64,000 nt of DNA from Chloroflexota bacterium (GCA_037440925.1 JBBITF010000006.1:1-64000), one strand, 5' to 3'; shown: positions 11,348-52,349, counted from the first letter of the stretch. Program-made: numbers and translations. The notes: generated from the letters alone by a model not told the origin.

Positions 11348-11761
11348 ATGCAAATCACCCGCCAAGCCGATTATGCTGTCCGCGCTGTGTTATATCTTGC
11401 GCGCATGAAAGGAAATCAGCGCGCCGCTACCAGCGCGATTGCCAAAGAGCAAGACATCCCCCCTTCCTTCTTGGCAAAGATCATTTCGCAACTTTCGATT
11501 GCAGGTCTATTGCATACCTCACGCGGTGCGCGCGGCGGCGTCACTTTGGCGCGTGAGCCGAAAGATATTACGCTTTTGGAAGTCATTGAAGCCATTGATG
11601 GCCCCATTATGCTGAATGAATGTGTGGGCGATAGCGCTACCTGCACGTTCAATGAGAATTGCCCGCTCAAGCCGGTGTGGTGTGATGCGCAGAATGAACT
11701 GGTGACGCGGCTGAAAGGCACCAACTTTGCTCAATTGCTGAACCATAAAGCCGCTGCATGA
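11348..11761 (+). CDS. Rrf2 family transcriptional regulator (three-Cys, probably Fe-S binding)
   Basis: MQITRQADYAVRAVLYLA...SRGARGGVTLAR is the Rrf2 wHTH signature. The C-terminal cysteines are CVGDSATCTFNENCP. Confidence 0.9.
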   Translation: MQITRQADYAVRAVLYLARMKGNQRAATSAIAKEQDIPPSFLAKIISQLSIAGLLHTSRGARGGVTLAREPKDITLLEVIEAIDGPIMLNECVGDSATCTFNENCPLKPVWCDAQNELVTRLKGTNFAQLLNHKAAA

Positions 11762-32675: not shown

Positions 32676-33422
32676 ATGAGCACAAGCGATATTTTGTGGA
32701 CCCTGCTTTCCCTCTTTTTCATTGGTCTGGCTTATTTTGCAGCCTTTTCTTTCGTGGCAGGTTTGCTGTGGAAATTCTACGGTTACTTGCGCACTCCCAT
32801 GCCTTTACCTCATGCTGTGACACCTGCTCCTAAGACAGAAGGGGGAGCCGTCTTACGCGTGTTAGGAGATGTCACCCTCTTCTCCAACCTGTTCAAAGCC
32901 GATAAATGGTTGTGGGGAGGTGCGTGGCTCTTCCATGTTGCCTTGGCTGCGGTTTTATTCCGTCACTTGCGTTATTTTACTTACCCCGTGCCTGGACTGG
33001 TCCTATACATGGAATCGGTGGCGCTATTCTTTGGCAGTTTGCTGGGGGCGGCTGCCTTGTTCCTGTTTTGGCGGCGGCTGGCTTTGCCGCGCACACTCTA
33101 TATTTCTAATATCCCCGATTATTTTGCCCTGGCTTTGTTGGGCGTGATTGCCGGCAGTGGCCTGATGGTGAATTACTGGTTGCGCGTCAATATCGTAGAT
33201 GTCAAAGGCTTTATTTTGGGATTGATGACTTTCCATCCTGTCGAAGTACCTCATCATCCCTTGTTCCTCTTGCATTTACTGGCCGTCCTGATTTTGATGA
33301 TTTACTTCCCTTTCAGCAAGTTGCTCCATGCAGGCGGTCTGATTTTCAGCCCCTCGCGTCATCAGCCTTTTCAGGTGCAGGTGCGCGGCAAGCGTTATAT
33401 CAATCCAGTTGACCGTTATTGA
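32676..33422 (+). CDS. dsrM: DsrM (NarI/HdrE-like dihaem b membrane subunit)
   Basis: Five to six TM helices with conserved His residues (LFHVA, FRHLRY, PHHPLFLLH, LLHAGG). It lies immediately upstream of dsrK. Confidence 0.85.
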   Translation: MSTSDILWTLLSLFFIGLAYFAAFSFVAGLLWKFYGYLRTPMPLPHAVTPAPKTEGGAVLRVLGDVTLFSNLFKADKWLWGGAWLFHVALAAVLFRHLRYFTYPVPGLVLYMESVALFFGSLLGAAALFLFWRRLALPRTLYISNIPDYFALALLGVIAGSGLMVNYWLRVNIVDVKGFILGLMTFHPVEVPHHPLFLLHLLAVLILMIYFPFSKLLHAGGLIFSPSRHQPFQVQVRGKRYINPVDRY

Positions 33423-33433
33423 GAGAATAACCT

Positions 33434-34879
33434 ATGTCGAAATTCGATGAGACTCCGATTGTCAAAGACCCGGCAGTAAATGGCGTCTTGCGCCCGCCCA
33501 AACTCCGCGAACACGCTTCGGCAGAGGTGCAGTGTTATCCGAGCAAGCCCAAAGATACTTCGGCCATTGATTTGCCGACCGAATTGGTGCCGGATTGGAA
33601 AGAGCGTGCCATTGCCAGATTGGGCGAGTTGTTGGAAAAGAACCAGGCCTTGCGCGTCTACATGGACATCTGTGTGCGCTGCGGCGCCTGCACCGACAAA
33701 TGCCAGTTCTTCCTGGGGACGGGCGACCCGCAGAACTTCCCGGTGGCGCGCGCGGAACTGCTGCGAAAAGTCTATCGCCGCTACTTTACGCCGGCCGGTC
33801 TCTTCCCAGACCTGGGAGAGGCCGCCGATTTAGACGAAGAGATGCTCCAGAAGTGGTACACCTACTTCTACCAATGCTCCGAATGCCGCCGCTGTTCGGT
33901 CTTTTGCCCGTATGGCATAGATACTGCCGAAATTACCATTGCCGCGCGCGAGATCATGGCCTCGATTGGTGTCTCGACCAAATACATCACGGAAGTTGTG
34001 GCAAAGGTCTATGCTACTGGCAACAATCTGGGCATTCCGCCGGCTGCCTGGAAGGACAACTGCGAATTTCTCGAAGAGGATGTGCAGGCGGATACCGGCC
34101 TGCCTATCCGCTTCCCAGTCGATGAGAAAGGCGCCGAAGTTCTGCTGGTGCCGCCCTCGGCCGATAACTTTGCCAATACTGACACCATGATTGGCTATGG
34201 CAAACTCTTCCATTTCTTGGGCGTCAGTTGGACAACCAGCACCTACTGTAATGAAGGCGGTAACTTTGGCCTGTTCTTGAATTTTGCCAACTTGAAAAAA
34301 GTCAACCGCCGCATTCTGGATGCCGCCCGCGAATTGGGCGTCAAGACCATTATCTGGGGTGAGTGTGGACATGCCTGGCGGGCAGGCATTATGACGCCTT
34401 CGCTCAATGGCCCGATGGATGATTTCGATCCGCCTTATCCGTACCATATTAGCCAGTATATCGTTGACATGCTGCACAAAGGCGCTTTCGAGGGCCACAT
34501 AGACAAGTCGGCCAATGACCAGTATCTTGTCACCTATCATGACCCGTGCAATTCTGCGCGCGCGGGCTACCTCATCGAAGAACCGCGTGAGATCATCCGC
34601 GCCGTTTGTAACCGCTTTGTCGAAATGCCAGAAGGCACCATCCGCGAAAAGACTTTTTGCTGCGGCGCAGGCAACGGCCTGTTGACGGATGAGATTATGC
34701 CCATCCGCATGGCGGGCGGCAAACCGCGCGCCATGGCCGTCAAGCACACCGGCGCCAATTACCTGGCCACTGTATGTGCAATTTGCAAGGCGCAATTGCC
34801 CGAATCCATGCACTATTGGCAGGTGCCGGTCAAGGTGGGTGGCGTGATTGACTTGCTGGCGAACGCTCTCAAATTCTAG
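33434..34879 (+). CDS. dsrK: DsrK (HdrD-like Fe-S / CCG-domain catalytic subunit)
   Basis: Motifs: CVRCGACTDKC, CSECRRCSVFCPYGID, CGHAWR, HDPCNSAR, FCCGAGNG, CAICKAQL. Confidence 0.9.
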   Translation: MSKFDETPIVKDPAVNGVLRPPKLREHASAEVQCYPSKPKDTSAIDLPTELVPDWKERAIARLGELLEKNQALRVYMDICVRCGACTDKCQFFLGTGDPQNFPVARAELLRKVYRRYFTPAGLFPDLGEAADLDEEMLQKWYTYFYQCSECRRCSVFCPYGIDTAEITIAAREIMASIGVSTKYITEVVAKVYATGNNLGIPPAAWKDNCEFLEEDVQADTGLPIRFPVDEKGAEVLLVPPSADNFANTDTMIGYGKLFHFLGVSWTTSTYCNEGGNFGLFLNFANLKKVNRRILDAARELGVKTIIWGECGHAWRAGIMTPSLNGPMDDFDPPYPYHISQYIVDMLHKGAFEGHIDKSANDQYLVTYHDPCNSARAGYLIEEPREIIRAVCNRFVEMPEGTIREKTFCCGAGNGLLTDEIMPIRMAGGKPRAMAVKHTGANYLATVCAICKAQLPESMHYWQVPVKVGGVIDLLANALKF

Positions 34880-35197: not shown

Positions 35198-35659
35198 ATG
35201 GTGAGCGCTATGACGGATACTTCTGTTTCCTCTCCTAAACCTTCCATTTTCTCCCGCCGCCGCCAGTTTATTCAACTGGGCTTCTTGACGGTGGCAGCCG
35301 CCTGGCTGGGAACATGGCTGCAAGCGCGTCTCTTCCCGGCCGCCAGCGCCAGCCAGGAAGCTGCGCCGGTCTCTTTTCCATTGAGCGACTTGCCGGTTGG
35401 CGGAGCCAAAGCCATTACGTATGGCGGCATTCCTGTATTGGTATTGCGCACCCCGCAGAGTCTCCGCGCCTTCTCGTTGATTTGCACGCACCTGGGCTGT
35501 ATTGTGGAATGGCAAGATAACAAGAAGGAATTTTATTGCCCTTGTCACGATGGCCGCTATGATGAATTTGGCGATGTGTTGGCCGGCCCCCCGCCCATTC
35601 CGTTGGAGCAATTTGCCGTGCGCATCGAGGGCGAACAAGTCATCGTCGGCGAGGCTTGA
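35198..35659 (+). CDS. Tat-exported Rieske [2Fe-2S] protein
   Basis: Twin-arginine motif SRRRQFIQLG plus a hydrophobic anchor. Rieske boxes are CTHLGC and CPCHDGRY. Its ATG abuts the stop of the upstream gene. Confidence 0.9.
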   Translation: MVSAMTDTSVSSPKPSIFSRRRQFIQLGFLTVAAAWLGTWLQARLFPAASASQEAAPVSFPLSDLPVGGAKAITYGGIPVLVLRTPQSLRAFSLICTHLGCIVEWQDNKKEFYCPCHDGRYDEFGDVLAGPPPIPLEQFAVRIEGEQVIVGEA

Positions 35660-35674
35660 GGCAGGAGAATGAAC

Positions 35675-36049
35675 ATGAAACGTTTTCTAATTTTCTTCGG
35701 TTCACTGCTTGTGACTGTGGCGTTGCTGTTGGCCCTCTTGCCCGCTGCTACGGCCCAAGCCCTTCCCGAATATTCAGCGCAGACCGGGGAACCCTGCGCC
35801 TCTTGTCACATCAGCCCCTCGGGCGGCGGCCCCCGCGGCCCGCGCGGGCAGGCCTGGGTAGCCTCCGGCAAACCCGGCGCCGTGCCGGATACGCTCCAGG
35901 CGCTCGAATTGCTGGGCGTCGAATTGAGCGTGGATCCGGCCTATTTTACGGCAACAGGTTTCGAGGTCCAGGAACCGGAAGCGCTGCAGGTCGCTCCGGC
36001 CCAGAGCGTGCGCTTGTACCGTTGGTTGAGTCAATATGATGGCAATTAG
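35675..36049 (+). CDS. Secreted monohaem cytochrome c
   Basis: Sec signal peptide (LLALLPAATAQA) and a single CASCH. AGGAG lies 8 nt before ATG 35675; the alternative start is ATG 35669. Confidence 0.75.
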   Translation: MKRFLIFFGSLLVTVALLLALLPAATAQALPEYSAQTGEPCASCHISPSGGGPRGPRGQAWVASGKPGAVPDTLQALELLGVELSVDPAYFTATGFEVQEPEALQVAPAQSVRLYRWLSQYDGN

Positions 36050-36080: not shown

Positions 36081-38450
36081 ATGGAAAACTTCCCCTCTCA
36101 GACTCCTCCCTCAGAACTTTCCCGTCGTGATTTCATCAAATTTGGCGCCGCTGCCGCCATCGCCGGCGTTGGACTGAACGCTTTGCAGCCAGCGCAGCAG
36201 GCTACCTCGGTGCAAGCGGCGGTGGGTGAAGAGACGATTGTTAAAACGACATGCGCCTTGTGCCCCTCAGGCTGCGGCCTGGATGTGCGCGTGGTGAACG
36301 GCAAGGCGGTGAAAGTGGAAGGCAACCCGCTGCACCCGCTCAACCAGGGCGTATGCTGCCTGCGGGGACAGACCTCGTTGGAGGTGCTGTATAGCCCAGA
36401 GCGCATCCAACGCCCGCGCGTCCAGATGGGCGAGCGCGGTTCGGGCGATTGGAAAGAAATCTCGTGGGACGAGGCGCTTGAACTGGCGGCTGGCAAACTC
36501 GGTGAACTGCGCGCCGCTGGAAAGCCTCATAGCGTTGCGCTCATGCATGGCGAACTGCGCGGGCAAATGCGCCAGACGGTGCAGCGTTTCATGCGCGCCT
36601 ATGGCTCGCCGAATGTCATTTCGCGCGAGAGTTTGGGCGAAGGCGCGGCCCGTATGGCTTTATGGCTTTCACAAGGCGTAAACGCGCTGCCGGTCTACGA
36701 CATCAACAACGCCAATTATGTGTTGACCTTTGGGGGCAACCTGCTCGAATCCAGCCGCAACTTGATTGGCTATCTGGGCGCGACGGCTTTCATGCGGCGC
36801 GGACGCCCACAGCGCGGCAAACTGGTGGCCGTCCACCCGCGCCTTTCTCTGACCGGCATCAAGGCCGACGAGTGGGTGCCAATCCGCCCTGGCACGTATG
36901 GCGCGCTGGCTTTGGGCATGGCCAATGTCATCATCAACAGCAAACTATATGACGAAGCCTTCGTGCGCGACTTTACCTTTGGCTTCGAGGATTTCGAGGA
37001 CGCCGAGGGGACGTTGCACAAAGGCTTCAAGTCGCTGGTGTTGGAAACCTATACCCTCGAGCGCGTCTCGGCTATTACGGGCGTCTCTACCGATAAGATT
37101 GCCCGCATTGCGGGCGAATTTGCCACCAACCGCCCGGCGGTCGCCATGCTGCCCACCGAGGCGGGCGAACTCTCTAGCGGCAATGCGCTGTACACGGCGC
37201 TGGCCGTCCATGCCTTGAATGCCCTGGTTGGCTCGATAGACGTCAAGGGCGGCGTCCTCTTGCAGCGCTTCCCTAAATTGGCCGACTGGCCTGACTACAC
37301 CCTCGATGCGACAGCCCGCCTGGGAGAAAGCCGCGAGCGCATAGACGGGGCCGGCTCCCAATTCCCCTTGGCGCTATCGGCCTATCAGAATGTGCCAGAG
37401 CGCATCCTGGAGGGCAAGCCTTACCCCATCGAGGCCCTCTTCTTGCTGAACGCCAACCCGCTCTACGACCTGCCCAATGGCGGGCGTACCCTGGAAGCCT
37501 TGCAAAAAGTACCTTTTGTGGTCAGTTTTGCCTCCACCCTCGACGAAAGCGCGGCCTATGCCGACCTGATTTTGCCGGCCAGCACCTTCCTAGAAGTGTG
37601 GGGCGACGATTACCTGGAAGGCACGGGCTATGCGGGCATCTCCCTGCGCCAGCCGGCTGTTGCGCCGCTCCACGATACGCGCAATCCCGGCGACGTGCTG
37701 CTCGACCTGGCGCACCGCATCGGAGGTAATCTGGCAAAAGCCTTCCCCTGGGAAACCTACCAAGACCTGATCATGCAGCGCCTGTCTACCCTGGATTGGG
37801 AGAAATTGCAGGCCAACGGCAACTGGTCCGAACTGGTCTATTTCAACGCCCAACCCGGCAGCCCCGCCTGGAGCGAGGTGGTCGGACGTGACCGCTTGAA
37901 CGCTCCCAAAGATGGACGCTTCGACTTCTTCTCGCGCGAACTCTTCGCCCTGCTCGCTTCGGACTCGGACTTGGCCTGCTTGCCCCACTTCGAGATTCCC
38001 CCCGCCCTGGCCGACACTGCCGAGGGCGCCCTCGACTATCCTTTCCTGCTGGTCGTACAGCCGCTCATCACCCAGTCGCAGCAATGGCAAGGCATCGTCC
38101 CCACCTTGCAGGAGAGTTACGGCTTGCAAGGGCATGTCAAGTGGGACAGTTGGGTAGAAATCAGCCAGAAGGCAGCCGAAGCCCTCCACCTCGAGGATGG
38201 GCAGCGCGTGTGGGTAGAATCGCCGCTCGACCGCGTGCAGGCCACCGTTAGGGTATATGCTGGCATCTGGCCGAATGCCGTCTTCCTGCCGCCTGGACAG
38301 GGCCATCACACCTTTGTGCGCTGGGGCCGCAAATCTGAGCAGAACATGGTCGTCGGCGCCAACCCGAATGTTCTGAGTTTGTTTACGAGCGAGCCGTTGA
38401 GCGGACTGGCCGTAGCCGGCCCCACCCGCGTCCGTATTTATCCGGTTTGA
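36081..38450 (+). CDS. Tat-exported molybdopterin (Mo-bisPGD) oxidoreductase-family large subunit (PsrA/PhsA/QrcB/ActB1-like)
   Basis: Tat signal SRRDFIKFGAAAAIAG. The FS0 motif is CALCPSGC-x26-C(C)LRG. Length is 789 aa. FeS and NrfD subunits follow. Confidence 0.9.
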   Translation: MENFPSQTPPSELSRRDFIKFGAAAAIAGVGLNALQPAQQATSVQAAVGEETIVKTTCALCPSGCGLDVRVVNGKAVKVEGNPLHPLNQGVCCLRGQTSLEVLYSPERIQRPRVQMGERGSGDWKEISWDEALELAAGKLGELRAAGKPHSVALMHGELRGQMRQTVQRFMRAYGSPNVISRESLGEGAARMALWLSQGVNALPVYDINNANYVLTFGGNLLESSRNLIGYLGATAFMRRGRPQRGKLVAVHPRLSLTGIKADEWVPIRPGTYGALALGMANVIINSKLYDEAFVRDFTFGFEDFEDAEGTLHKGFKSLVLETYTLERVSAITGVSTDKIARIAGEFATNRPAVAMLPTEAGELSSGNALYTALAVHALNALVGSIDVKGGVLLQRFPKLADWPDYTLDATARLGESRERIDGAGSQFPLALSAYQNVPERILEGKPYPIEALFLLNANPLYDLPNGGRTLEALQKVPFVVSFASTLDESAAYADLILPASTFLEVWGDDYLEGTGYAGISLRQPAVAPLHDTRNPGDVLLDLAHRIGGNLAKAFPWETYQDLIMQRLSTLDWEKLQANGNWSELVYFNAQPGSPAWSEVVGRDRLNAPKDGRFDFFSRELFALLASDSDLACLPHFEIPPALADTAEGALDYPFLLVVQPLITQSQQWQGIVPTLQESYGLQGHVKWDSWVEISQKAAEALHLEDGQRVWVESPLDRVQATVRVYAGIWPNAVFLPPGQGHHTFVRWGRKSEQNMVVGANPNVLSLFTSEPLSGLAVAGPTRVRIYPV

Positions 38451-38477: not shown

Positions 38478-39164
38478 ATGCCCCGCTGGGGAATGGTCAT
38501 TGACCTGGACAAATGCTTTGCCTGCCAGAGCTGCACCGCAGCCTGCCGCATGGAAAACAACACGCCTGTGGCCGGAAAGAACCAGGCCGATATGGGGCGC
38601 GCCATCCTGTGGAACGAGGTCTTGCCGTTCATAGAAGGCGAGTATCCCAATATCCACACCACCATGTTGCCGCGCCCGTGTATGCACTGCGACAACCCAC
38701 CCTGCGTTAAAGTCTGCCCGGTGCAGGCGACTTACAAAAACGAAGAAGGCATCGTGCTGGTGAACTACGATCGCTGTATTGGCTGCCGCATGTGCACTGT
38801 GGCTTGCCCTTATGCCGTGCGTTACTTCAACTGGTACCCCCCCGAATGGCCCGAGGAACTGAAAGCGCACTTGAATCCAGAACCGGAAGTGCAGCCTCGT
38901 CCTAAAGGCGTGGTCGAAAAATGTACCTTCTGCTTCCAGCGTTTGCGCAAAGCGCGTGAAGAAGCCGATGCAGAAGGTCGTCCTTTCAACGCCACTGACT
39001 ACACCCCTGCCTGCGTGCAAACCTGCACCGGCCACGCCCGCTACTTTGGCGACCTGGATGACCCGAACAGCCTGGTCTCTAAACTGGCGCATAGCCCGCG
39101 CGCCTTCCGTATGTTCGAAGAACTTGGCACACAGCCCAAAGTCTATTACTTGAAGCAAGGGTGA
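38478..39164 (+). CDS. 4x[4Fe-4S] ferredoxin-type electron-transfer subunit (PsrB/DsrO/QrcC/ActB2-like)
   Basis: Four Cys clusters: CFACQSCTAAC, CMHCDNPPCVKVCP, CIGCRMCTVACP, CTFC...CVQTC. It has no signal peptide of its own, so it would need to be co-exported with the Tat subunit. GGAGG RBS. Confidence 0.9.
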   Translation: MPRWGMVIDLDKCFACQSCTAACRMENNTPVAGKNQADMGRAILWNEVLPFIEGEYPNIHTTMLPRPCMHCDNPPCVKVCPVQATYKNEEGIVLVNYDRCIGCRMCTVACPYAVRYFNWYPPEWPEELKAHLNPEPEVQPRPKGVVEKCTFCFQRLRKAREEADAEGRPFNATDYTPACVQTCTGHARYFGDLDDPNSLVSKLAHSPRAFRMFEELGTQPKVYYLKQG

Positions 39165-39168
39165 TGAT

Positions 39169-40497
39169 ATGGAACCCAAGAATCAAAACGTACAGCAAAT
39201 CCTTGCTCCCGTGCGCCGCGTTTCGGCTGGCGATTACCTGCTGTGGGGCGTCTTGCTTGCCTTGTTGTTGACCGGCCTGGGCGCCTGGACGTGGCAATTC
39301 ATCGAGGGCTTGGGCATCACCGGCATGAACCGCCCGGTCTATTGGGGCGTATACATTACCAACTTCGTTTTCTTCATCGGCCTGGCGCATTCCGGCACCT
39401 TCATCTCGGCCATCTTGCGCATCGCCGGGCAGAGTTGGCGCGCCCCGCTCACCCGCGCTGCCGAAGCCATCACGCTTTTCAGCCTGCCCTTCGGTGCTGG
39501 CTCCATCATTATTGATATGGGGCACCCCGAGCGCATCCTCAATGTCATTTTCTATGGACGTTACCAGTCGCCCATCCTGTGGGATGTGACAGCCGTCAGC
39601 CTGTATATGCTCTCCAGCATCATCTTCTTCTACTTCTCGCTCATCCCCGACATTGCGATTTGCCGCGACCGCCTCACCGACGCTCCGCGCTGGCAGCGCC
39701 GCATGTACCAAATCCTGGCTCTGGGTTGGAAGCACCATCCTGAGCAATATCGCCGTCTGGAAAAAGTGCTGGATGGTATGGCCGTTTTCATGACCATGTT
39801 GGTCGTCACCGTTCACACTGTGGTTTCCTGGCTGTTTGGCATGACCGTCCAACCTGGCTGGCATACCGCCTTGATCGGGCCGTTCTTCCTGTTGGGCGCC
39901 ATCCTATCGGGAACGGCGGCGGTGGTGATCACCTTGGCCATCCTGCGCAAGGTCTATCATCTGGAAAATGTCTTGCATGTCGGCCTGTTCAACTCTTTGC
40001 GCAAACTGTTGATTACCTTTGTCCTGGGCTGGCTGTACATGATGATCGCCGAGCATCTCACCATTGGTTATAGCAGCATGACCGAAGAGATGGTCGTCCT
40101 CAACGACAAATTCAGCGGCACCTTCTCGTTGATTTTCTGGAGCATGGCTACCTTCGTGTTTGGTCTTCCTTTGCTCATCTTCCTCTTCAAAGGCAAGAAC
40201 AATATCGGTTGGATGGTGTTTGCCTGTGTCCTCATCAATATTGGCATGTGGCTGGAGCGTTACATTGTCATCATCCCTACCGAGGTTAGCCCGCGCATGT
40301 TGCATGTCATGGGACAGGGACACTACCTCCCCCAACTGCCTGAAATCCTCATCACGATTGCCTGTTTCGCTGGCCTCATCCTGCTCTACGCGGTCTTTAC
40401 TCGTTTCTTCCCCATTGTTCCCATCTGGGAGACGGCTCAGGAACTGCCCGGCCACGCGCATTCTCAGCCGGCTCCGGCAGCCGCAGCCAGCGATTAG
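39169..40497 (+). CDS. NrfD-family quinone-interacting membrane subunit (ActC/QrcD/DsrP-like, 442 aa)
   Basis: About 10 TM helices. WGVYITNFVFFIGLAHSGTFISAILR, SPILWDV, GWHTALIGPFFLLGAILSG and GMWLERYIVIIP resemble the ACIII ActC/ActF and Qrc style of NrfD proteins. Confidence 0.9.
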   Translation: MEPKNQNVQQILAPVRRVSAGDYLLWGVLLALLLTGLGAWTWQFIEGLGITGMNRPVYWGVYITNFVFFIGLAHSGTFISAILRIAGQSWRAPLTRAAEAITLFSLPFGAGSIIIDMGHPERILNVIFYGRYQSPILWDVTAVSLYMLSSIIFFYFSLIPDIAICRDRLTDAPRWQRRMYQILALGWKHHPEQYRRLEKVLDGMAVFMTMLVVTVHTVVSWLFGMTVQPGWHTALIGPFFLLGAILSGTAAVVITLAILRKVYHLENVLHVGLFNSLRKLLITFVLGWLYMMIAEHLTIGYSSMTEEMVVLNDKFSGTFSLIFWSMATFVFGLPLLIFLFKGKNNIGWMVFACVLINIGMWLERYIVIIPTEVSPRMLHVMGQGHYLPQLPEILITIACFAGLILLYAVFTRFFPIVPIWETAQELPGHAHSQPAPAAAASD

Positions 40498-40515: not shown

Positions 40516-40704
40516 ATGAACATTGGCGGTTTGGTTCACGCATATTTCGACAATGCCGGCCCGGGCGGAGTCTTTGTCTTGCTGGTTGTCGGCGTTGCCT
40601 GCACTACCTACTACCTCCTGGCCCGCTGGTTCGTAGCCGGCGGTAGAACAGAGAGCCAGGCAGTTCCTTCTACCGATGAACAACCTGTGAGCATGGACGA
40701 ATGA
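40516..40704 (+). CDS. 62-aa single-TM protein (ActD-like position)
   Basis: AGGAGG RBS, one TM helix (VFVLLVVGVACTTYYLL), and a 4-nt ATGA overlap with the next gene. Confidence 0.55.
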   Translation: MNIGGLVHAYFDNAGPGGVFVLLVVGVACTTYYLLARWFVAGGRTESQAVPSTDEQPVSMDE

Positions 40705-42791
40705 AACGACGAATTCTGCTTCCCTCCCTGGTCTTCCTGGCGGTCCTGACGCTGGCCGTCGGCTCCGTCTCCGCTTCCTCCCTCGACTTCAGCCTGCCTG
40801 CCTCGGCCGAAGGAGAGACTCTCGTCTCCGGCAATTACTGCGCCTCCTGTCATCTGACCGATGACCCGCGCCTGGCGTCTGCCACGGCTTGGAAAGGCGG
40901 CATCCAAAGCAAAGTCAACTCGCCCTGCCCGGCAGCCATCAAAATACACGAAGAACTATATTACACCGAACGGTTGCTGCTCATGATCGAACGCGCCGAA
41001 AACGCAGTTGGCCCCTTGCCCGAAAAGAGCCAGGCTCGTTTGGAGGACTATACCCAGCGTTACAGCCGTATGCTCGATACGCCTGTCGGCAGCCTGGACG
41101 CTTTCGTCAGTGAAGCCCAGTCAACTCGTTATCAGTTGAACAAGGCCTATGCTGCGCTCAATCAAATGGCGCAAGACGCCAAACAGCGCACAATCTTGAC
41201 GTATGCGGCGGCGATTACCTTGATTGTGCTTGGCTCATTGGCCTGGGGCGTGTACAACTCCCGCGCGCTGGCCTCTGGAAAGGTGAGCCGATCTTGGGGG
41301 CTATTCTGGCGTGTGCTGTTTATCGTGGCTGTTGTGGCGTTCTTTACCTTGCCTTTCTTCCGTGTGCCGGCCGAAGAGGTGGTGATGACCACTGCCGAAC
41401 AGCAGGAAGCCCAGGCAACCCTCGATGCCGCTCAACGCGCAGCCGACGCTGCCGACCGTTCGCAGGCGCGCGCCTGGATGTTAGCCCGCGTTGCGGCTGC
41501 CTATGCCGAAATGGACGCCGCCCAAGCCCAGGCTATCCTGGATGAAGCGCTGACCTCGCTCGACGTAGCCCGCAAGAACGAAGAAGCCCTGTGGGGGCAA
41601 AGCCTGGTCGTGCAAGAAGTGACGGTTGGCACCAAAATCGAAATGGAATCGGCCGGCCTCATCACCGCCGACCTGAACGCTGCCCGCGCCCGCGCCTGGG
41701 CCTTGCCGCTGGTTGCCCGGCAGTGGAACGCCCTCGATCCAATCAAAGCCGCCGCCCTCTTACAGGCCGAACAGGACGCCCTGATTGGCCAAGAAGGCCT
41801 CTACCGTGATTTACAATTGCGCGCCCTATCGCTGGCCTGGGTCGAAGTGAATCCTTCCAAGGCCGCCCCTGCTGCCGCCCAAATACAGGACGCTTCCCTG
41901 CGCGCCTGGACCTTCCGTGAACTGGCGGACCTGACCCACAACCCCTCACTCTATGACAAAGCCCTCCAGGCTGCGCGTGAAATCACGGACCCTGTCCAGA
42001 AAGCGCGCGCCCTGCGAGAGATTGCCCACTCTTCTGGCAAGAGCGCCCTTTTCGAGGAAGCCCTGACCGCGCTAGATGGCGTGACCGACCCCGCTTTGGC
42101 CTATGCCCTCAGCGACCTGGCCGCTGCCTGGGGCAACGCTTCTCTGGTCGAAAGAATCGCCTACCCCGATGCCCGCGCCAGCGCCTTGCTGCGCATGGGA
42201 GAATACCCCTCCGCTTGGGAGGCGGCGGCAGGCATCGCTGATCCTTACGAACAGGCGCGCGCCCAAGCCGCCATTGCTTCTGCCTGGGGCAATGCCGATG
42301 CCGCCATGCAGATTGCTGTCCCCTTATACCGCGATTTGGCATTGCGCGATGTCATCCGAAAAACGGGAAATACGTCACTGGCAGAGGCAATTACCTCCAA
42401 GTACTATAAAGTCCAGGCTCTAACTGCTCTAGGCGAGACCGAATCTGCCCTCCAAGTAGCCGCCGACCTGGGCGAAACCTACCCCTTGGTTGATTTGGCT
42501 GTCCATTTGTCCGCCTCCAATCCGCAGGCGGCGTTGGCCTTGGTCGAGCAGATGAAGCGCGAAAGCGACAAAGCCATTGCCTTGCAGGCTATTGCTGTTG
42601 CCTCGCAGGACCCGTCGCTCATCGAACAGGCGCAGGGCATGGCACTGGCCGCCCGCGTGCGCGGCGACTCGCTGGCCCCGGCCCAGGCTTTGCTCGATCT
42701 TGCAAATGCCCTTCTGGAAGTAGATGTCAAATACGCAGAAGCAGCCTTTCGTCAGGCGTATGAAGCGGCGCAGCGCATTGCAACCAAATGA
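40701..42791 (+). CDS. Monohaem cytochrome c domain + two TM helices + ~450-aa Ala-rich helical-repeat (HEAT/TPR-like) domain protein
   Basis: Signal peptide, a single CASCH, two TM helices (ILTYAAAITLIVLGSLAWGVY and LFWRVLFIVAVVAFFTLPFF), then repeated ~30-aa units of the form D-x-x-x-(R/K)A-x-AL-x-x-IA-x-x-W. Confidence 0.75.
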   Translation: MKRRILLPSLVFLAVLTLAVGSVSASSLDFSLPASAEGETLVSGNYCASCHLTDDPRLASATAWKGGIQSKVNSPCPAAIKIHEELYYTERLLLMIERAENAVGPLPEKSQARLEDYTQRYSRMLDTPVGSLDAFVSEAQSTRYQLNKAYAALNQMAQDAKQRTILTYAAAITLIVLGSLAWGVYNSRALASGKVSRSWGLFWRVLFIVAVVAFFTLPFFRVPAEEVVMTTAEQQEAQATLDAAQRAADAADRSQARAWMLARVAAAYAEMDAAQAQAILDEALTSLDVARKNEEALWGQSLVVQEVTVGTKIEMESAGLITADLNAARARAWALPLVARQWNALDPIKAAALLQAEQDALIGQEGLYRDLQLRALSLAWVEVNPSKAAPAAAQIQDASLRAWTFRELADLTHNPSLYDKALQAAREITDPVQKARALREIAHSSGKSALFEEALTALDGVTDPALAYALSDLAAAWGNASLVERIAYPDARASALLRMGEYPSAWEAAAGIADPYEQARAQAAIASAWGNADAAMQIAVPLYRDLALRDVIRKTGNTSLAEAITSKYYKVQALTALGETESALQVAADLGETYPLVDLAVHLSASNPQAALALVEQMKRESDKAIALQAIAVASQDPSLIEQAQGMALAARVRGDSLAPAQALLDLANALLEVDVKYAEAAFRQAYEAAQRIATK

Positions 42792-42812
42792 ACGATTCTG
42801 CGAGGTCATGCG

Positions 42813-43196
42813 ATGTTGAATGAATATACCGGTAAGCGCGTTCTTGTGATTGCCACCTTTGGTTCTGCTAACCCAGAGCGCGGCCCCGGTCCATTTGTCT
42901 TTGCCGGCGAAGCCGCCAGGGGCGGCGCTGAAGTCATGCTCATCTTTGTCTTGCAAGCGCCGCTGCTCCTCAAGCGGGGCGTTGCGGAGAAATTGTATGC
43001 CAAACAAGGCGGGCGTACCATCCGCGAATTCATTGATGATGCCCTGCGGCTTGGGGTAAAATGCTATGTGTGTGATACGGCGTTGCAACTTTGCGACATG
43101 ACGCCCGAAGACTTGATTGAAGAAGTGGACGAACTGGTCGGCCCCAGTTTCTTGATCAAACAAGGATTACAGGCTGATCTGGTTCTCTCTTTCTAA
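42813..43196 (+). CDS. DsrE/DsrF-like family protein
   Basis: 127 aa with a DsrE-fold pattern: KRVLVIATFGS..., central cysteines VKCYVCDTALQLC, and C-terminal FLIKQGLQADLVLSF. Confidence 0.65.
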   Translation: MLNEYTGKRVLVIATFGSANPERGPGPFVFAGEAARGGAEVMLIFVLQAPLLLKRGVAEKLYAKQGGRTIREFIDDALRLGVKCYVCDTALQLCDMTPEDLIEEVDELVGPSFLIKQGLQADLVLSF

Positions 43197-43463: not shown

Positions 43464-44888
43464 ATGACTGCTCGAACCCGTCATGCGCCTCGTCTGGTCA
43501 TTGCGGCGCCCCAGGGTCGAAGTGGAAAAACCACCCTGACCTTGGGATTGTGCGCCGCATTCAAAGCGCGCGCGCTGACCATCCAGCCCTACAAAAAAGG
43601 ACCCGATTACATTGATCCCTCCTGGCTGAGTGAAGCCGCTGGAACCCTCTGCCGTTCCCTAGACCCTTTCTTTTACGAAAAGCCCGAAGAACTCTTACGG
43701 GCTTTTCTGCGCTCTGCTCCTCAAGATGGGGTGAGCCTGATCGAAGGCAATCACGGCTTGTTTGACTCCTTCGATGAAAGCGGACGAGGTAGCACGGCTG
43801 CGGTTGCGCGCACGTTGCAGGCTCCCCTCCTGTTGGTGATCAATGCCGCCCGCATGGGGCGCAGCGCCGCGGCCATCGTGCATGGCTGTCAAACCTTCGA
43901 GCCAGAAACGAACATCGCCGGCGTGGTTCTGAACAACGTAGCGCAAGGTCGCCACGAGGCCCGTATGCGCCAGGCCATTGAAAGTCGCTGCGGTGTGCCT
44001 GTATTGGGCGCCATTCCACGCGACGAAACCCTGACCATCCCCGACCGTCACCTGGGATTGGTGCCTCGCGCCGAACAAGACGCGCTTCTTCCCGCCATCA
44101 CAGCCTGCCGGCAGACTATCGAGCGCTACCTCGACCTCGATGCTGTCCTGGCTATAGCCCGGGCTGCGCCTGCTTTACCCGCTCCCTCTCCGGCCTCCTC
44201 CGCGGCCCAGCCGGTCTCGCATCGGCCGCTCATCGGCGTCCTGCGCGACCGTGCCTTTACCTTCTACTACCCTGAAAATTTAGAAGCCCTGGAAGAAGCC
44301 GGTGCCGACCTGCTCTTCCTGGACGCTTTGCGTGACGCCGAATTGCCCCCTGTAGACGCCCTCTACATCGGCGGCGGCTTCCCCGAAATATTCATGGACG
44401 AGTTGTCTGCCAACGTTTCTCTGCGCCGCGCCATCCGCGAAGCCATCGAAAACGACTTGCCGGTCTACGCCGAATGCGGCGGCCTGATGTACCTCTCCCA
44501 GCGCATTGTGTGGGGCGAAAAATCGGCCGAGATGGTGGGCGCCTTGCCCTGCGAAATCGAAATGACCTCCAAACCCCAGGGACATGGCTACGTAACTGCC
44601 CAGGTGGAGGCCGAGAATCCTTTTTTCTCGCCGGGCCTGCTCTTGCGTGGACATGAGTTCCACAACTCGCGGCTTGTAATGCTCCCTGGCAACCGCCTTG
44701 CAACGGCTTATCGCCTCTTGCGCGGCAATGGAGTAGGCGATGGCCGCGATGGGCTTCTTTACCGTAACACATTGGCTTCTTACACTCATTTGCATTCTGG
44801 CGGAGCGCCTGACTGGGCCGTTGGCCTGGTTCATCGGGCGCAGGTTTATCGAGAAAACCGCCTACAAGCAGAAATGGATAACAGATGA
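43464..44888 (+). CDS. dsrN: Cobyrinic acid a,c-diamide synthase family protein, DsrN (sirohaem amidase) by context
   Basis: P-loop APQGRSGKTTLTLGL with KKGPDYIDPSW, and a C-terminal glutamine-amidotransferase part (YAECGGLMYL, GHEFHNS). Located in the dsr operon. Confidence 0.85.
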   Translation: MTARTRHAPRLVIAAPQGRSGKTTLTLGLCAAFKARALTIQPYKKGPDYIDPSWLSEAAGTLCRSLDPFFYEKPEELLRAFLRSAPQDGVSLIEGNHGLFDSFDESGRGSTAAVARTLQAPLLLVINAARMGRSAAAIVHGCQTFEPETNIAGVVLNNVAQGRHEARMRQAIESRCGVPVLGAIPRDETLTIPDRHLGLVPRAEQDALLPAITACRQTIERYLDLDAVLAIARAAPALPAPSPASSAAQPVSHRPLIGVLRDRAFTFYYPENLEALEEAGADLLFLDALRDAELPPVDALYIGGGFPEIFMDELSANVSLRRAIREAIENDLPVYAECGGLMYLSQRIVWGEKSAEMVGALPCEIEMTSKPQGHGYVTAQVEAENPFFSPGLLLRGHEFHNSRLVMLPGNRLATAYRLLRGNGVGDGRDGLLYRNTLASYTHLHSGGAPDWAVGLVHRAQVYRENRLQAEMDNR

Positions 44889-46015
44889 GGCTGCCTCTCC
44901 TTTCCAATATTGGTAATTTTTTCCCAAAATTGCGCTCGAAACCGGATGTCCAGGCCTCCAAAAAACGGCCGTTTAACGTCGTGCAAATCGAAATCACCAG
45001 TCGCTGCAGCACCGGCTGTGTCTTCTGCCCGCATGATGCTTTGTCTGACAAATGGATAGACGGGGACCTGTCGCCGCTCATGTATGAAGAATATATCGTC
45101 CCGCATCTGGATTTGTTCGATTTGGTGTACCTGCAAGGCTGGGGCGAACCTATGCTGCACCCCAACCTGTGGGATATGCTGGCCTCGGCTCAAGACAAGG
45201 GTTGCCGCACCGGCTTCACCACCAACGGCGCCTGGCTGCAAAGCGAACAAAATCAGCGTCTGGTAGAGATGGGTGTGGATATGATTTCCGTCTCTTTTGC
45301 CGGGACGGCTGCTCCCATTCACGAATCGCTGCGTACCAATTCTCAGTTTGCCGAACTGTGTAGCAATTTCGAGAGCCTGGCCAACCTCAAGAAACAACGC
45401 GGCGTGACCAAACCCTGGCTCGAATTGCATTTCCTGATGACCCGCGCCAATTTGAAAGAATTCCCTGGCCTGGTCGAACTGGCTGCCTCCCTAGGCGCGG
45501 ATGAAGTAGTCGCCACCAACCTCACCTATTCCCCGAGCCTGGCGCTAGACCGGATGCACATCTTTGGCGAACAGCCTCTGCCTGAAGATGTCGAACTGAT
45601 TCAGCGCGCCCAAGCCAACGCTGAACGGCTGAACATTCCGCTGCGCGTTTACCCGCTCCAAACCGAACCCAATACCCTGGTCTGTGACGCTGACCCGCTC
45701 AATACCGTGTACGTCAACCATCGCGGCGAGGTCTCCCCTTGTGTCTATCTGGGGCTAACAGTGCAGGGAAGGGTTCCGCGCTTCTATCAGGGCGAAGCTC
45801 ACCCATTTGACGCCCTTTCCTTTGGAAATATTCAGACAGGTTTCTTGAAGGCGCTTCATGGAAAAGAGCGCGAGACCTTCCTGTCTGCTTTCAAACAACG
45901 CAATATGACCAGCGGCCCTCTGGCGATGCTTACCTACATGTCCGAACCAGGCCAGGCTGAATTGCCGCCTCCGCCTGTCCCTTGTCAGCATTGCTACAAA
46001 ATGTTGGGCGTGTGA
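44885..46015 (+). CDS. Radical SAM enzyme with C-terminal SPASM/twitch-like Cys region (NirJ/Ahb/MoaA-like style)
   Basis: CSTGCVFC (Cx3Cx2C) follows VVQIEITSRC. The GWGEPML motif is present. C-terminal cysteines are CDADP...SPCVYL...PCQHC. There is a 4-nt ATGA overlap with dsrN. Confidence 0.85.
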   Translation: MRLPLLSNIGNFFPKLRSKPDVQASKKRPFNVVQIEITSRCSTGCVFCPHDALSDKWIDGDLSPLMYEEYIVPHLDLFDLVYLQGWGEPMLHPNLWDMLASAQDKGCRTGFTTNGAWLQSEQNQRLVEMGVDMISVSFAGTAAPIHESLRTNSQFAELCSNFESLANLKKQRGVTKPWLELHFLMTRANLKEFPGLVELAASLGADEVVATNLTYSPSLALDRMHIFGEQPLPEDVELIQRAQANAERLNIPLRVYPLQTEPNTLVCDADPLNTVYVNHRGEVSPCVYLGLTVQGRVPRFYQGEAHPFDALSFGNIQTGFLKALHGKERETFLSAFKQRNMTSGPLAMLTYMSEPGQAELPPPPVPCQHCYKMLGV

Positions 46016-49014: not shown

Positions 49015-50820
49015 CTACTCGCCCGTCAAACCGGCCAGCGTCCCATTCAGGTCTTCCTGGTAGGTGGTGTGACAGGTGCTGCAAAGCGCCAGTTGGGGCT
49101 TGTTTTGTTCGACGGCTTGCTGTTGGTGGCAGGTCAGGCAGCGGCCGTGCATGGCGTCTTTGTAACCGGGCGCCATGGCTTCAAATACAGTTTGGCCTTC
49201 GGCAGGCGTCATGGTCTCATGGCAATCCTGGCAGATCGCTGACGTTAACCGAATGTGTTCCTGTGCATGGCATTCCTGGCAACTTGCGTTCCCGCCCAGT
49301 TCCTGCTGGTGCAGGCTGTGATCGAAGATCGAAGCCGGGCGATAATAATCGGTGTGACAGGCCGAACATGCCGTCGCTTCATCGTTTGGGCGGTCCAGGT
49401 GATGGCAAACCTGGCAGTTGCTCTCGCCGGTGGCCTTATTCATCAAACGTTCCTGGTGCTCCAGATGGGGAAAATTGACTACATAGCCGCTGCGGTTGCC
49501 GTCTATTTGCAGCGGTTCCCAGCCTCTAGCCTCCATGACCGGCGTGGCAGGCGGCTGCGCTTTGACAATCAACACCGGCACCGCCAGCGCCATGACGAAG
49601 ACGGCCAGACGGCTGCGATGCGCGACGATGGCCCTCAGCCACGAGCCTTGACCGGCCAACCAGGTCGCCCTGGCGGGCGCCGCCGCTTCTTCCTCCGCTT
49701 CGGCCTGCTTGCCGAACAATTGCAGATTCTCGGCGAAGAACAGGTACAGCAAGAACGCCGCCGACGGGATGGCGAAGGCGATGGCCGTTTCGCCCAGCGA
49801 AGGGGTATAGGCTGTACCCGCCGCCCGGTACATGGTGAACATGCTCAGCGACATGCGCTGGCTCATGATGCCCAGAATGCCCAGCACGGCGCCGGTCAGC
49901 AGGCCCTCGCGCCTCTCTCGTGTCTTTTTGATGCTGAACAGGACAATGGGAAGCACCCCGCACAACAGGATTTCGGCCAGGAATAAAATGCTTTGCCAGG
50001 AACCATCCAGCGCGCCGGGCAGCACCCCGCGCAGAACCTGGTCGCCCAGGCGCAGCAGCAAGTACAGTCCCAGCGGCAGGGGCGTCCACTTTCCCAAAGT
50101 GGTCAGGATGTCGAAGTGCATCCCGCGTTTGAACCAGCGCTCGACAAAGAAGCCTTCTACAATTAACGCCATCATGCCGGCTGCAATGGCGCTGGTGAAG
50201 AACAGGTAAGGCAGCCAGGGACTATACCACAGCGGGTGGACGCGATGCGGCATGATGAGGAACAGCGATCCCAGCGAGGACTGGTGCAAAGTAGATAGAA
50301 CGATGCCGGCAATCACCAGCGGCAGGGTGAACTTGTGAAGCCAGTGCAGCAGGGTCTTGAAGAGCGGGTGGCGGAACCAGGGATGTTCCAGGATGACCGG
50401 AGAAAACTCCAGCACCAGCACCGAGAAATACAGCATCACACACCAGGCAATCTCGAACATGACCGAGTGATGCTGCCAACTGATGATGGGCATGTAAATG
50501 TGCCAGGGCAGGCCCAGGTCGAAAATCAGGGAGACGATGAATGAGCCGTAGCCCAGCAGAGCCACCAAAATCGCCCGCCGCAAGATGGGGCGGAAGAATT
50601 CCAGGTGGAAAATGTACACCAGTGCCGCCAGGGTGAAGCCGCCGCCGGCGATGGCGACGAACACCAGTTTGAAAGCGATCCACAGCCCCCAGGGGGCAGA
50701 GTCATTGAGTCCGGTAGCGGCCCCAAGTCCGGCAGCGAAGCGAATGATAGAGGCCACCAGGCCCGCCAGGGCGATGGCCCACAATCCATCTTTGATCCAA
50801 GTGCGCGTAGTCGTGTTCAC
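49015..50820 (-). CDS. NrfD/HybB-like membrane subunit fused to a C-terminal hexahaem cytochrome c3-like domain
   Basis: N-terminal ~400 aa polytopic NrfD/HybB-like region (PWGLWIAFKLVFVAIAGGGF), an extra TM helix, then six CxxCH motifs: CQVCH, CSACH, CQECH, CQDCH, CLTCH, CSTCH. Confidence 0.85.
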   Translation of the reverse strand: MNTTTRTWIKDGLWAIALAGLVASIIRFAAGLGAATGLNDSAPWGLWIAFKLVFVAIAGGGFTLAALVYIFHLEFFRPILRRAILVALLGYGSFIVSLIFDLGLPWHIYMPIISWQHHSVMFEIAWCVMLYFSVLVLEFSPVILEHPWFRHPLFKTLLHWLHKFTLPLVIAGIVLSTLHQSSLGSLFLIMPHRVHPLWYSPWLPYLFFTSAIAAGMMALIVEGFFVERWFKRGMHFDILTTLGKWTPLPLGLYLLLRLGDQVLRGVLPGALDGSWQSILFLAEILLCGVLPIVLFSIKKTRERREGLLTGAVLGILGIMSQRMSLSMFTMYRAAGTAYTPSLGETAIAFAIPSAAFLLYLFFAENLQLFGKQAEAEEEAAAPARATWLAGQGSWLRAIVAHRSRLAVFVMALAVPVLIVKAQPPATPVMEARGWEPLQIDGNRSGYVVNFPHLEHQERLMNKATGESNCQVCHHLDRPNDEATACSACHTDYYRPASIFDHSLHQQELGGNASCQECHAQEHIRLTSAICQDCHETMTPAEGQTVFEAMAPGYKDAMHGRCLTCHQQQAVEQNKPQLALCSTCHTTYQEDLNGTLAGLTGE

Positions 50821-50821
50821 G

Positions 50822-51613
50822 TTATTGCTCCTCGGTGGGTTGACTCTGGCGCGCTTTTTGCGCCGCCTGTGCCTGCATACGCCGTTCGATAATCCAGAAC
50901 AGTCCGGTCATCAAACCCGCGGTGCCAATGGTAATGGCGGGTACCTTGCTTAGCCACTCCCAGGTCAGTTCTGGCATGGGCTTCTGGATAGGAGCGCCGT
51001 GATAGCCCAGGAAATCTAACGGAACGTGGGAAATGTACATTACGGCTGTGCCGCCGACTTCCTGCGCGCCATAGACGATGGGCAGATATTTGTGCGGGGC
51101 TTCCTGGATGCGCTGGTTGGCGATTTCGAGCAGTTCGCTCCTTTCGCCAAAGGTCAGCACCTTTTCAGGGCAGGTTTCTACACAGGCGGGCAGTTGTCCC
51201 TGTTGGATGCGGCCATAGCATAACGTACATTTCTGCACCAACGGCGCGGGGGAGTCCCATTCGTAGCGCGGAATGCCAAAGGGACAGGCCATCATGCAAT
51301 AGCGGCAGCCCATACACTTTTGGCTATCGTAGATCACTGCCCCTTCGGGCGTGCGGTACATGGCGCCGACCGGGCAGGCCGAGACGCAGGCCGGTTCCAG
51401 ACAGTGGCGACAGAATTTTCGCACGAAGCCGCCTTCGGGGCTTTCGACAATGGACGACCAGCGGCGCGCCGACAAGCCATCGGGAGATTGCTGCGGCAGG
51501 TATTCGAGCGCGCCCAGGTGGTTGACTTCGGCGCAGGCCTCCACGCATTGATTACAACCCGTACAGCGGGTGACATCCACTAAAATACCAACTTGTTTTA
51601 TCGTGCCGCTCAT
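50822..51613 (-). CDS. 4x[4Fe-4S] protein with C-terminal TM anchor (HmcB/DsrO/HybA-like)
   Basis: Motifs: CTGCNQCVEAC, CRHCLEPACVSACP, CMGCRYCMMACP, CTLC...CVETCP. C-terminal helix ITIGTAGLMTGLFWII. No N-terminal Tat or Sec signal is visible. Confidence 0.9.
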   Translation of the reverse strand: MSGTIKQVGILVDVTRCTGCNQCVEACAEVNHLGALEYLPQQSPDGLSARRWSSIVESPEGGFVRKFCRHCLEPACVSACPVGAMYRTPEGAVIYDSQKCMGCRYCMMACPFGIPRYEWDSPAPLVQKCTLCYGRIQQGQLPACVETCPEKVLTFGERSELLEIANQRIQEAPHKYLPIVYGAQEVGGTAVMYISHVPLDFLGYHGAPIQKPMPELTWEWLSKVPAITIGTAGLMTGLFWIIERRMQAQAAQKARQSQPTEEQ

Positions 51614-52314: not shown

Positions 52315-52349
52315 ATCGAAAAGAGCCTCCTACTCATTAAAGTTGGATA

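Follow-up and report, generated by a model that had tools for sequence, protein, structure and literature searches.

A putative membrane-anchored monohaem cytochrome c with a predicted extracytoplasmic α-solenoid in dsr operons of Chloroflexota

For the respiration of sulfite and sulfate, it has long been an open question by which route electrons pass from the quinone pool to DsrC and DsrAB. The described systems closest to the locus analysed here are alternative complex III (ACIII) and the Qrc complex, the cytochromes c1 and f, and the DsrJ subunit of DsrMKJOP. Neither ActB of ACIII nor QrcB of Qrc has a Mo ligand, and DsrJ, like TsdA and SoxA, is known for His/Cys ligation of haem. In the list of ACIII subunits ActD and ActE follow ActC, and an interaction of DsrJ with thiosulfate has been proposed (PMC8076601). 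We analysed a stretch of 64,000 nucleotides from a Chloroflexota bacterium (GCA_037440925.1, JBBITF010000006.1:1-64000), called the window below, which holds a dsrABDC operon with a gene for a protein of 696 amino acids (aa). We infer that this 696-aa protein is a membrane-anchored monohaem cytochrome c with an extracytoplasmic α-solenoid. It is a new family and a new architecture within the known accessory c-type cytochrome subunits of quinone-interacting complexes, and we lean, a little beyond even confidence, towards it being a stoichiometric outward-facing (P-side) subunit of an undescribed membrane respiratory complex.

The Anaerolineae concerned, which include Candidatus Desulfolinea nitratireducens, are uncultured. 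Their dsr operons are without a plain DsrMKJOP. What they contain is DsrMK together with a Rieske protein, small carriers of c haem (three of them), a module of the ACIII/Qrc type that has no Mo ligand, and the 696-aa protein. The main interest of the protein is that it marks this hybrid Rieske/ACIII-type module, which appears to be wired to DsrMK.

Putative haem domain, membrane topology and solenoid

The open reading frame (ORF) at 40701-42791 is a real gene, as shown by the 233 homologues found in a word-indexed search. Nearly all of these are full length (690-710 aa), with 52-100% identity; their named sources are Anaerolineales/Chloroflexota, apart from one record labelled Bacteroidota, and most are called 'hypothetical protein'. 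An exhaustive profile search over 1.84 billion cluster representatives gave 581 matches at E ≤1e-3, 96 of them at E ≤1e-30, which fall into three groups: group A from Anaerolineae (~700 aa), group I from Chloroflexota (~745 aa, ~25-30% identity to the 696-aa protein), and group D from Thermodesulfobacteriota (~1200 aa, ~18-22% identity). Group D proteins share residues ~41-500 with the 696-aa protein, including the segment 232-344, and their solenoid is much longer. No Pfam or NCBIfam family matches the whole protein, or its N-terminal domain and solenoid taken separately up to E = 10, and PDB searches with the family profile and the N-domain returned a weak match to the protein TON_1535 and motif-level noise only. 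In the openly accessible literature on NrfD complexes, the diversity of dsr and sulfur metabolism in Chloroflexota we did not find the gene, or a Rieske/NrfD/DsrMK module, described, and the papers there that mention 'Desulfolinea', or 'DsrMK' together with 'Rieske', contain no description of either.

The sequence confirms the outline given in the initial annotation–a 696-aa ORF with a signal peptide, one CASCH motif and two transmembrane (TM) helices. The N-terminus, MKRRILLPSLVFLAVLTLAVGSVSASS, consists of a KRR n-region, a hydrophobic core (Kyte-Doolittle hydropathy, KD, 2.43) and a c-region reading VSA before the S at the presumed cleavage site. CASCH is the only CxxCH in the protein, which has three Cys in total (47, 50 and 76), and its context is indeed shared with the 126-aa cytochrome encoded upstream, which also reads ...EPCASCH....

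All 218 relatives with an intact N-terminus have the CxxCH motif and one further Cys 22-33 residues past the motif His (109/109 in group A, 30/30 in group I and 79/79 in group D); the members in which CxxCH or the third Cys is missing are N-terminally truncated and were excluded from this count. Conservation of the CxxCH in orthologues, which the initial annotation had named as decisive, therefore holds without exception among intact sequences. In an N-terminal alignment of 224 sequences from the three subfamilies, the only residues conserved at 100% are C47, C50, H51 and C76. Three others, R143, K148 and Y150, are conserved at ~99%, no Met or second His is conserved in this region, and His83 is variable across the wider family. 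We rejected Met95 as a distal ligand, because its invariance is confined to close orthologues: the wider family has K, A, Q or R at this position. For a CxxCH accompanied by an invariant unpaired Cys, and by no conserved Met or His, a His/Cys-ligated haem c is the simplest reading, and the pattern suggests Cys76 as the distal ligand. The invariant third Cys goes beyond the initial annotation, as do the link to a Rieske protein and the loss of a Mo-ligand Cys described below.

We modelled the 696-aa protein with AlphaFold2 (AF2), using 40 homologues (mean predicted local distance difference test score, pLDDT, 81.9; predicted template modelling score, pTM, 0.78). Judging by the order and lengths of the helices, the haem motif and Cys76 would sit at the membrane-distal end of a three-helix stalk. 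AF2 models both TM segments as a helical hairpin, and with a mean KD of 2.0-2.8 both are strongly hydrophobic throughout the family. The intervening loop shows a positive-inside charge pattern: it has on average 4.2 K+R versus ~0.1 D+E in 110 orthologues, and 4.2-5.3 versus 0.1-0.3 across the family groups. The 25 residues past TM helix 2 (TM2) reverse this ratio, with 1.0 K+R versus 4.65 D+E in the 110 orthologues and similar values in groups A and I. Because a covalently attached haem c must be outside, this charge pattern gives the order out-TM-in-TM-out, with the solenoid outside.

In group D, TM2 has a short basic loop before it and a conserved Cys at its end, with a small residue before the Cys and S or T after it; 51 of the 79 members contain a strict lipobox pattern ([AGS]-C-[ST]) at this position. 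This layout resembles an N-in/C-out lipoprotein signal peptide and suggests that the group D proteins may be processed internally to lipoproteins. Taken with the loop charges, the lipobox-like TM2 of group D argues that the solenoid is outside the cytoplasm. The topology proposed in the initial annotation, out-TM-in-TM-out with external repeats, is thus supported by the positive loop, by the acidic stretch after TM2 and by the lipobox-like TM2 of group D.

A cytoplasmic solenoid, in a protein with only one membrane-spanning segment that scaffolds DsrK, DsrC, DsrAB or SdhAB, seems to us very improbable. It would suit the overlap of the group D gene with sdhB and the lack of export of SdhA there (see below), the occurrence of similar repeats in cytoplasmic NTPases of the STAND class (signal transduction ATPases with numerous domains), and the moderate hydrophobicity of TM helix 1 (TM1) in the window protein (KD 1.84). 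However, it conflicts with the strong family-wide hydrophobicity of both segments, with the positive loop and acidic post-TM2 stretch of both Chloroflexota groups, with the n-h-c lipoprotein signal layout and conserved Cys of the group D TM2, and with the helical hairpin modelled by AF2.

The C-terminal domain (475 aa) is all-helical in the AF2 model, with 27 helices between residues 232 and 691 and pLDDT >90 over most of 330-690. As predicted, it is an alpha-alpha solenoid of tandem helical hairpins, and the Ala content of residues 225-696 is 24.6%. Profile-profile self-comparison found the segments 345-428, 429-512, 513-591 and 592-696 to be mutually similar (75-96% probability, P down to 1.5e-9), and the segment 232-344 to be unlike these later repeats. 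The helices modelled in this membrane-proximal part are 232-268, 273-307, 312-330 and 334-343. The orthologue alignment (A1) shows no variation at W259, W298-G299, E306 or W333 of this part, and of these only W259 and W333 are still invariant once distant relatives join (alignment A2). An iterated hidden Markov model (HMM) of the repeat, with the consensus DPAQRAWALRELAAAWGDQSLFEEALEA, detects 8 copies at E<1e-3, and shuffled C-domains give only weak matches to it. The three repeats quoted as examples in the initial annotation are present, at 429-443, 513-528 and 622-634. Its estimate of about 14 repeats is sound if helical hairpins are counted (~13), but a little generous for repeats detectable in the sequence (~8).

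No Pfam repeat family matches residues 225-696 at E values up to 10. The structure model has only generic alpha-solenoid matches (PPR, VPS35, LGN TPR and the HEAT-like TON_1535), and TON_1535 is also the sole PDB sequence match of the solenoid (weak, E = 0.0014). TM-scores against TPR- and HEAT-like solenoids, namely TON_1535, VPS35, designed toroids and STAND C-terminal repeats, are low (0.1-0.3), and none of these is exported and fused to a cytochrome c, as the 696-aa solenoid is predicted to be. We also noticed that the repeat unit matches, many times, the C-terminal repeats of NB-ARC/NACHT STAND NTPases (P0201, P0211, P0217 and P0225), a repeat part that Pfam covers patchily; one of the matched NTPases has a TIR domain. 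These matches indicate that the unit belongs to a widespread TPR-like type that has no Pfam model.

Operon context in Chloroflexota and Thermodesulfobacteriota

The window genes are co-directional in the order DsrA, DsrB, DsrD, DsrC, DsrM-like, DsrK-like, 104-aa dihaem cytochrome c, Rieske protein and 126-aa monohaem cytochrome c, followed by a molybdopterin (Mo-pterin)-like subunit, an iron-sulfur (FeS) subunit, an NrfD protein, a 62-aa peptide and the 696-aa protein. Downstream of it are genes for a DsrE-like protein, a ferredoxin, a DsrN-like amidase and a radical SAM/SPASM protein. The 4-nt overlap reported earlier between the 696-aa gene and the 62-aa TM peptide gene is real: the latter ends ..GAC GAA TGA at 40704, and the former starts ATG A.. 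at 40701.

We scanned one genome per GTDB species, using the orthologue alignment A1, and found 38 loci in 36 assemblies, all of them Chloroflexota and among them Candidatus Desulfolinea nitratireducens. Synteny is strict. An NrfD gene is directly upstream in all 32 loci that have upstream sequence (GTDB loci plus L001-L003), and in Chloroflexota the genes for the FeS subunit and for the Mo-pterin-like subunit without Mo-ligand Cys also invariably precede the target gene. Genes for the Rieske protein, the dihaem cytochrome c and DsrMK are present in all but one of the 28 loci whose upstream flank is long enough (27/28). Group I genes occur in the same operon. In many relatives an extra pair of genes lies between the target gene and the DsrE-like gene (12144-14144 in L001; 8884-10890 in L002), coding for a protein of 213 aa and for a CCG/FeS protein of ~450 aa that resembles DsrK (~33% identity); the window (42791-42813) and some other genomes do not have this pair.

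Within the window operon, the Mo-pterin-like subunit has ArrA and PsrA as its closest structures and keeps its N-terminal FeS Cys motif and its signal for twin-arginine translocation (TAT). The Mo-ligand Cys of ArrA aligns to Gly183, and the orthologues have G, A, D, N or S at this position. From its sequence, the subunit is probably cofactor-less like ActB and QrcB. Among the roles considered for the neighbours of the 696-aa protein, we downgraded a catalytic reductase of the PsrABC/PhsABC type, because the Mo-ligand Cys is absent. The closest solved structures to the window NrfD are of ActC from ACIII (6f0k_C; E 4e-63 to 2e-52), and its match to the NCBIfam DsrP model has an E-value of 9e-31, below the family cut-off. 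The operon places a bc-type Rieske protein beside this ActC-like NrfD and contains no cytochrome b, a Rieske/NrfD combination that we did not find described in the literature.

In Thermodesulfobacteriota, the group D genes end their operons in all four loci examined (L004, L005, L046 and L047; the gene runs from 10001 to ~13600). The first half of these operons encodes, in order, a GntR regulator, fumarase, a DsrM-like protein, an FeS protein plus a CCG protein (a split DsrK), a dihaem cytochrome c and a Rieske protein. The second half encodes a cytochrome b (partly fused to a c domain), SdhA, a small Sdh membrane subunit, SdhB and the homologue of the 696-aa protein, whose gene again has a 4-nt overlap, this time with sdhB. 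The SdhA has no export signal. The DsrM-like, DsrK-like, dihaem c and Rieske proteins of these operons have 40-65% identity to their window counterparts; the DsrM- and DsrK-like proteins are at 45-65%, and the homologue of the 104-aa dihaem cytochrome c, encoded beside the Rieske gene, is at 40-45%. Comparison of the two operon types thus yields a constant set of DsrMK-like proteins, dihaem cytochrome c, Rieske protein and 696-aa family member. The variable part is either an ActC-like NrfD with FeS and Mo-like subunits, or a cytochrome b with SdhABC. All the contexts we examined are respiratory; the homologues do not show the random placement relative to respiratory genes that the initial annotation had named, along with cytoplasmic repeats, as speaking against its reading.

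These paralogues bear on whether the 696-aa protein might itself be the true catalytic subunit, with a His/Cys haem that acts on an extracellular inorganic sulfur compound (thiosulfate, polysulfide or a sulfite adduct) in the manner of TsdA, SoxXA or the proposed activity of DsrJ, and with a solenoid that binds a substrate carrier. The invariant unpaired Cys near the haem motif, where no Met or His is conserved, would fit such an enzyme, and the gene lies in a dsr operon beside genes for DsrC, DsrE-like and DsrN proteins. A Mo-pterin subunit without the Mo-ligand Cys leaves the complex without an obvious catalytic site, and the suggested interaction of DsrJ with thiosulfate (PMC8076601) offers a parallel. 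However, the same Cys is kept in paralogues from operons for fumarase and succinate dehydrogenase/fumarate reductase, which have no sulfur enzymes. The N-domain has no match to the SoxA-TsdA cytochrome c domain (PF21342) at E values up to 10, and nothing indicates a substrate pocket. We consider a catalytic haem unlikely.

Proposed place in a respiratory complex

The initial annotation had compared the 696-aa protein to ActD/ActE of ACIII. The comparison stands as far as position is concerned: the window order Mo-like, FeS, NrfD, small TM peptide and monohaem protein parallels ActB-ActC-ActD-ActE, and the ActC-like NrfD, the QrcC/DsrO-like FeS subunit and the Mo-pterin-like subunit without Mo ligand resemble those of ACIII and Qrc. 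It does not extend to the protein itself, which resembles neither ActD, nor ActE, nor any known cytochrome c in sequence or fold. The operon has neither the pentahaem ActA nor a second NrfD (ActF), and includes a Rieske protein and DsrMK, neither of which belongs to ACIII or Qrc. Whereas ActE has a lipid anchor, the 696-aa protein is anchored by a TM hairpin–its signal peptide ends in VSASS, with no Cys–and it carries an additional 475-aa solenoid. Within the family, a lipobox-like Cys is confined to the distant group D proteins, where it ends TM2.

With cytochromes c1 and f the protein shares a signal peptide, a predicted P-side monohaem domain and a TM anchor C-terminal to the haem domain. 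A bc-type Rieske protein is encoded with it in 27/28 Chloroflexota loci with enough flank and in 4/4 Thermodesulfobacteriota loci, and in the latter operons so is a cytochrome b. However, searches of Pfam and the PDB found no homology to the families of cytochromes c1 and f. The haem domain forms a stalk of three helices instead of a class I or cytochrome f fold, the candidate ligand is Cys instead of Met or an N-terminal amine, and the protein has two further parts, TM2 and the large solenoid. DsrJ is likewise a P-side membrane-anchored c cytochrome, encoded with DsrMK and DsrO/DsrP-like proteins in a dsr operon, and the possible His/Cys ligation is a further likeness, but the 696-aa protein has one haem motif versus three haems, has no sequence similarity to DsrJ and is five times larger.

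In the reading that we favour, the protein would be exported by the Sec system, lose its signal peptide and carry one covalent haem c at the membrane-distal tip of the three-helix stalk. Its TM hairpin would anchor it among the other membrane subunits, and its 475-aa TPR-like α-solenoid would lie on the outer face of the membrane. The complex would comprise an ACIII/Qrc-type quinone module (the Mo-pterin-like subunit without Mo ligand, the FeS subunit and the ActC-like NrfD), the bc-type Rieske protein, two small c cytochromes and DsrMK, all encoded within the dsrABDC operon. The haem would relay P-side electrons between the Rieske/FeS centres and the other c haems, a position filled elsewhere by cytochrome c1, cytochrome f or ActE, and the solenoid would serve as a structural clamp or docking surface for outward-facing subunits. 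What the sequences show is the layout of domains, the invariant CxxCH and third Cys, the strict gene order and the positive-inside charges; that haem is attached with His/Cys ligation, that the protein belongs to this complex, that electrons flow in this direction and that the solenoid is a scaffold are things that we infer.

Several observations weigh against this proposal. Haem binding and its ligation are read from motifs alone, and the AF2 models are less certain there: around the haem motif the model of the whole protein has pLDDT <50, and a model of the N-domain has 64-77 over aa 48-77. His/Cys-ligated haems normally have a very low potential, a poor fit to a cytochrome c1-like acceptor from a Rieske centre. 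The median isoelectric point (pI) of the solenoid is 4.45 for the Anaerolineae proteins and 7.1 for those of other Chloroflexota, and reaches 9.1 for the paralogues from Thermodesulfobacteriota; the charge of the solenoid thus varies by subfamily, and its partner cannot be one conserved electrostatic interactor. In group D, the solenoid cannot clamp the catalytic module, because SdhA is not exported. One locus, L040, has the 126-aa cytochrome, Mo-like, FeS, NrfD and target genes without neighbouring Rieske or DsrMK genes, though it is partly masked. Finally, membership of an operon cannot tell a structural subunit from a dedicated assembly factor.

The range of median pI (4.45-9.1) also led us to rule out a conserved electrostatic docking surface on the solenoid. 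Together, the variable charge and the succinate/fumarate context of the paralogues argue against a conserved role in docking a sulfur carrier, one of the partners envisaged in the initial annotation. As for L040 itself (CP070811.1, Anaerolineales bin12), the module lies at 4482-11485 behind a LuxR-type regulator, with no adjacent dsrAB; stretches of masked N make this picture incomplete.

A dedicated assembly or maturation factor, which like E. coli CcmH (a CcmH-CcmI fusion) would hold and reduce neighbouring apo-cytochromes or the Rieske protein, is a quite unlikely alternative in our view, although the domain order invites it. Like CcmH/CcmI, in which the CxxC is a thiol-redox motif, the 696-aa protein has an exported small helical CxxC domain, a TM segment, a cytoplasmic loop, a second TM segment and outward helical repeats. 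The N-domain is modelled as a three-helix bundle, three other c-type cytochromes of the operon need maturation, and the position of the gene in the operon would be compatible. Against this, the His of CxxCH is kept in 224/224 sequences, which is the signature of haem attachment and not the LRCxxC of CcmH, and the protein has no Pfam or PDB similarity to CcmH or TPR families at E values up to 10. There is no ccm operon, no ccm or ccs genes are adjacent in the loci examined, and translation of the gene is coupled to that of structural genes. With ~1000 aa, the solenoid of the paralogues also far exceeds any known apocytochrome chaperone.

A bolder version of the favoured P-side subunit, which we regard as doubtful, lets the 696-aa protein stand in for cytochrome c1, and serve as architectural clamp, in respiratory supercomplexes of a new class that contain Rieske proteins and have a swappable quinone module. 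If this were true, a core of DsrM-like, DsrK-like, dihaem c, Rieske and 696-aa proteins would plug into either an ACIII-type NrfD module or a cytochrome b/Sdh module. Quinol oxidation at the Rieske centre would then split electrons between the c haems (among them a low-potential His/Cys haem on the 696-aa protein) and a path across the membrane through DsrM to DsrK and DsrC, which would suggest how menaquinol could drive reduction of the DsrC trisulfide.

Among the conserved members of the Chloroflexota operon, the 696-aa protein and the 62-aa peptide are those without a library match that tells their function, and of the two only the 696-aa protein links these operons to the Rieske/cytochrome b/succinate dehydrogenase type of Thermodesulfobacteriota. 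The gene can serve as a marker for the module, with a candidate His/Cys haem, and the protein is a structural target on a putative Rieske/NrfD hybrid complex. Even if it were merely a scaffold, it would be a new exported repeat family fused to a cytochrome.

Features of the window and other neighbouring genes

Coordinates of the 696-aa gene, its domains and the upstream operon genes are given in Table 1.

Table 1. Features of the 696-aa gene and of the operon genes upstream of it, in window coordinates
Feature	Position	Strand	Evidence
DsrM-like dihaem b membrane protein and DsrK-like CCG/FeS protein	32676..34879	+	Pfam
104-aa dihaem cytochrome c with a TM anchor; CLQCH and CNNCH at a spacing of nine residues	34883..35197	+	without Pfam annotation
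bc-type Rieske [2Fe-2S] protein; RR motif, TM anchor, CTHLGC...CPCH	35198..35659	+	Pfam Rieske
126-aa exported monohaem cytochrome c (CASCH); second Met at 35675	35669..36049	+	kept in all related loci
TAT-exported molybdopterin-like subunit without Mo-ligand Cys	36081..38450	+	Pfam, NCBIfam
4x[4Fe-4S]-type FeS subunit, QrcC/DsrO/PsrB-like	38478..39164	+	Pfam, NCBIfam
NrfD-family membrane subunit, ActC/DsrP-like	39169..40497	+	Pfam NrfD
62-aa single-TM peptide gene, translationally coupled to the 696-aa gene	40516..40704	+	orthologues with 37-97% identity at the same position
696-aa protein gene, ATG start	40701..42791	+	ORF and translation; 233 homologues; no Pfam/NCBIfam match
Sec-type signal peptide, aa 1-27	40701..40781	+	kept in alignment; presumed cleavage between VSA and S
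Haem c attachment motif CASCH, aa 47-51	40839..40853	+	C47, C50 and H51 invariant
Cys76 (SPCP), third invariant Cys, candidate distal haem ligand	40926..40928	+	
Antiparallel three-helix bundle stalk, aa 77-164; helix 3 runs on into TM1	40929..41192	+	
TM helix 1, aa ~165-185, out to in	41193..41255	+	hydropathy, KD 1.84; LGSLAWGxYN motif kept
Short Arg/Lys-rich cytoplasmic loop, aa ~186-200	41256..41300	+	charge counts, 110 orthologues
TM helix 2, aa ~201-221, in to out	41301..41363	+	KD 2.24; acidic stretch after it
Membrane-proximal ectodomain, aa 232-344: two long helical hairpins and shorter helices	41394..41732	+	
Repeat solenoid, aa 345-696: ~11-12 helix-turn-helix units of 26-33 aa each	41733..42788	+	

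Past its CASCH, the mature 126-aa cytochrome contains no Met, His or Cys. The distal ligand of its haem would therefore not be a usual residue of its own, and another subunit may supply one. Downstream, the radical SAM/SPASM gene (44885-46015, + strand) lies beside the DsrN-like amidase gene, a position that is kept in nearly all related loci; its best scores, which are below the cut-offs, are to a maturase of tungsten-cofactor oxidoreductases and to a metalloenzyme maturase.

The minus strand carries, at 49015-53726, the genes of a second membrane complex. They encode a CCG protein similar to DsrK/HdrD, a DsrM-like protein, an FeS protein similar to DsrO and a 601-aa fusion of NrfD with a C-terminal c3-type multihaem domain. 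In its composition, K-M-O-P(c3 fusion), this cluster may be a closer equivalent of DsrMKJOP than the operon that contains the 696-aa gene, and it also adjoins the operon in L001.

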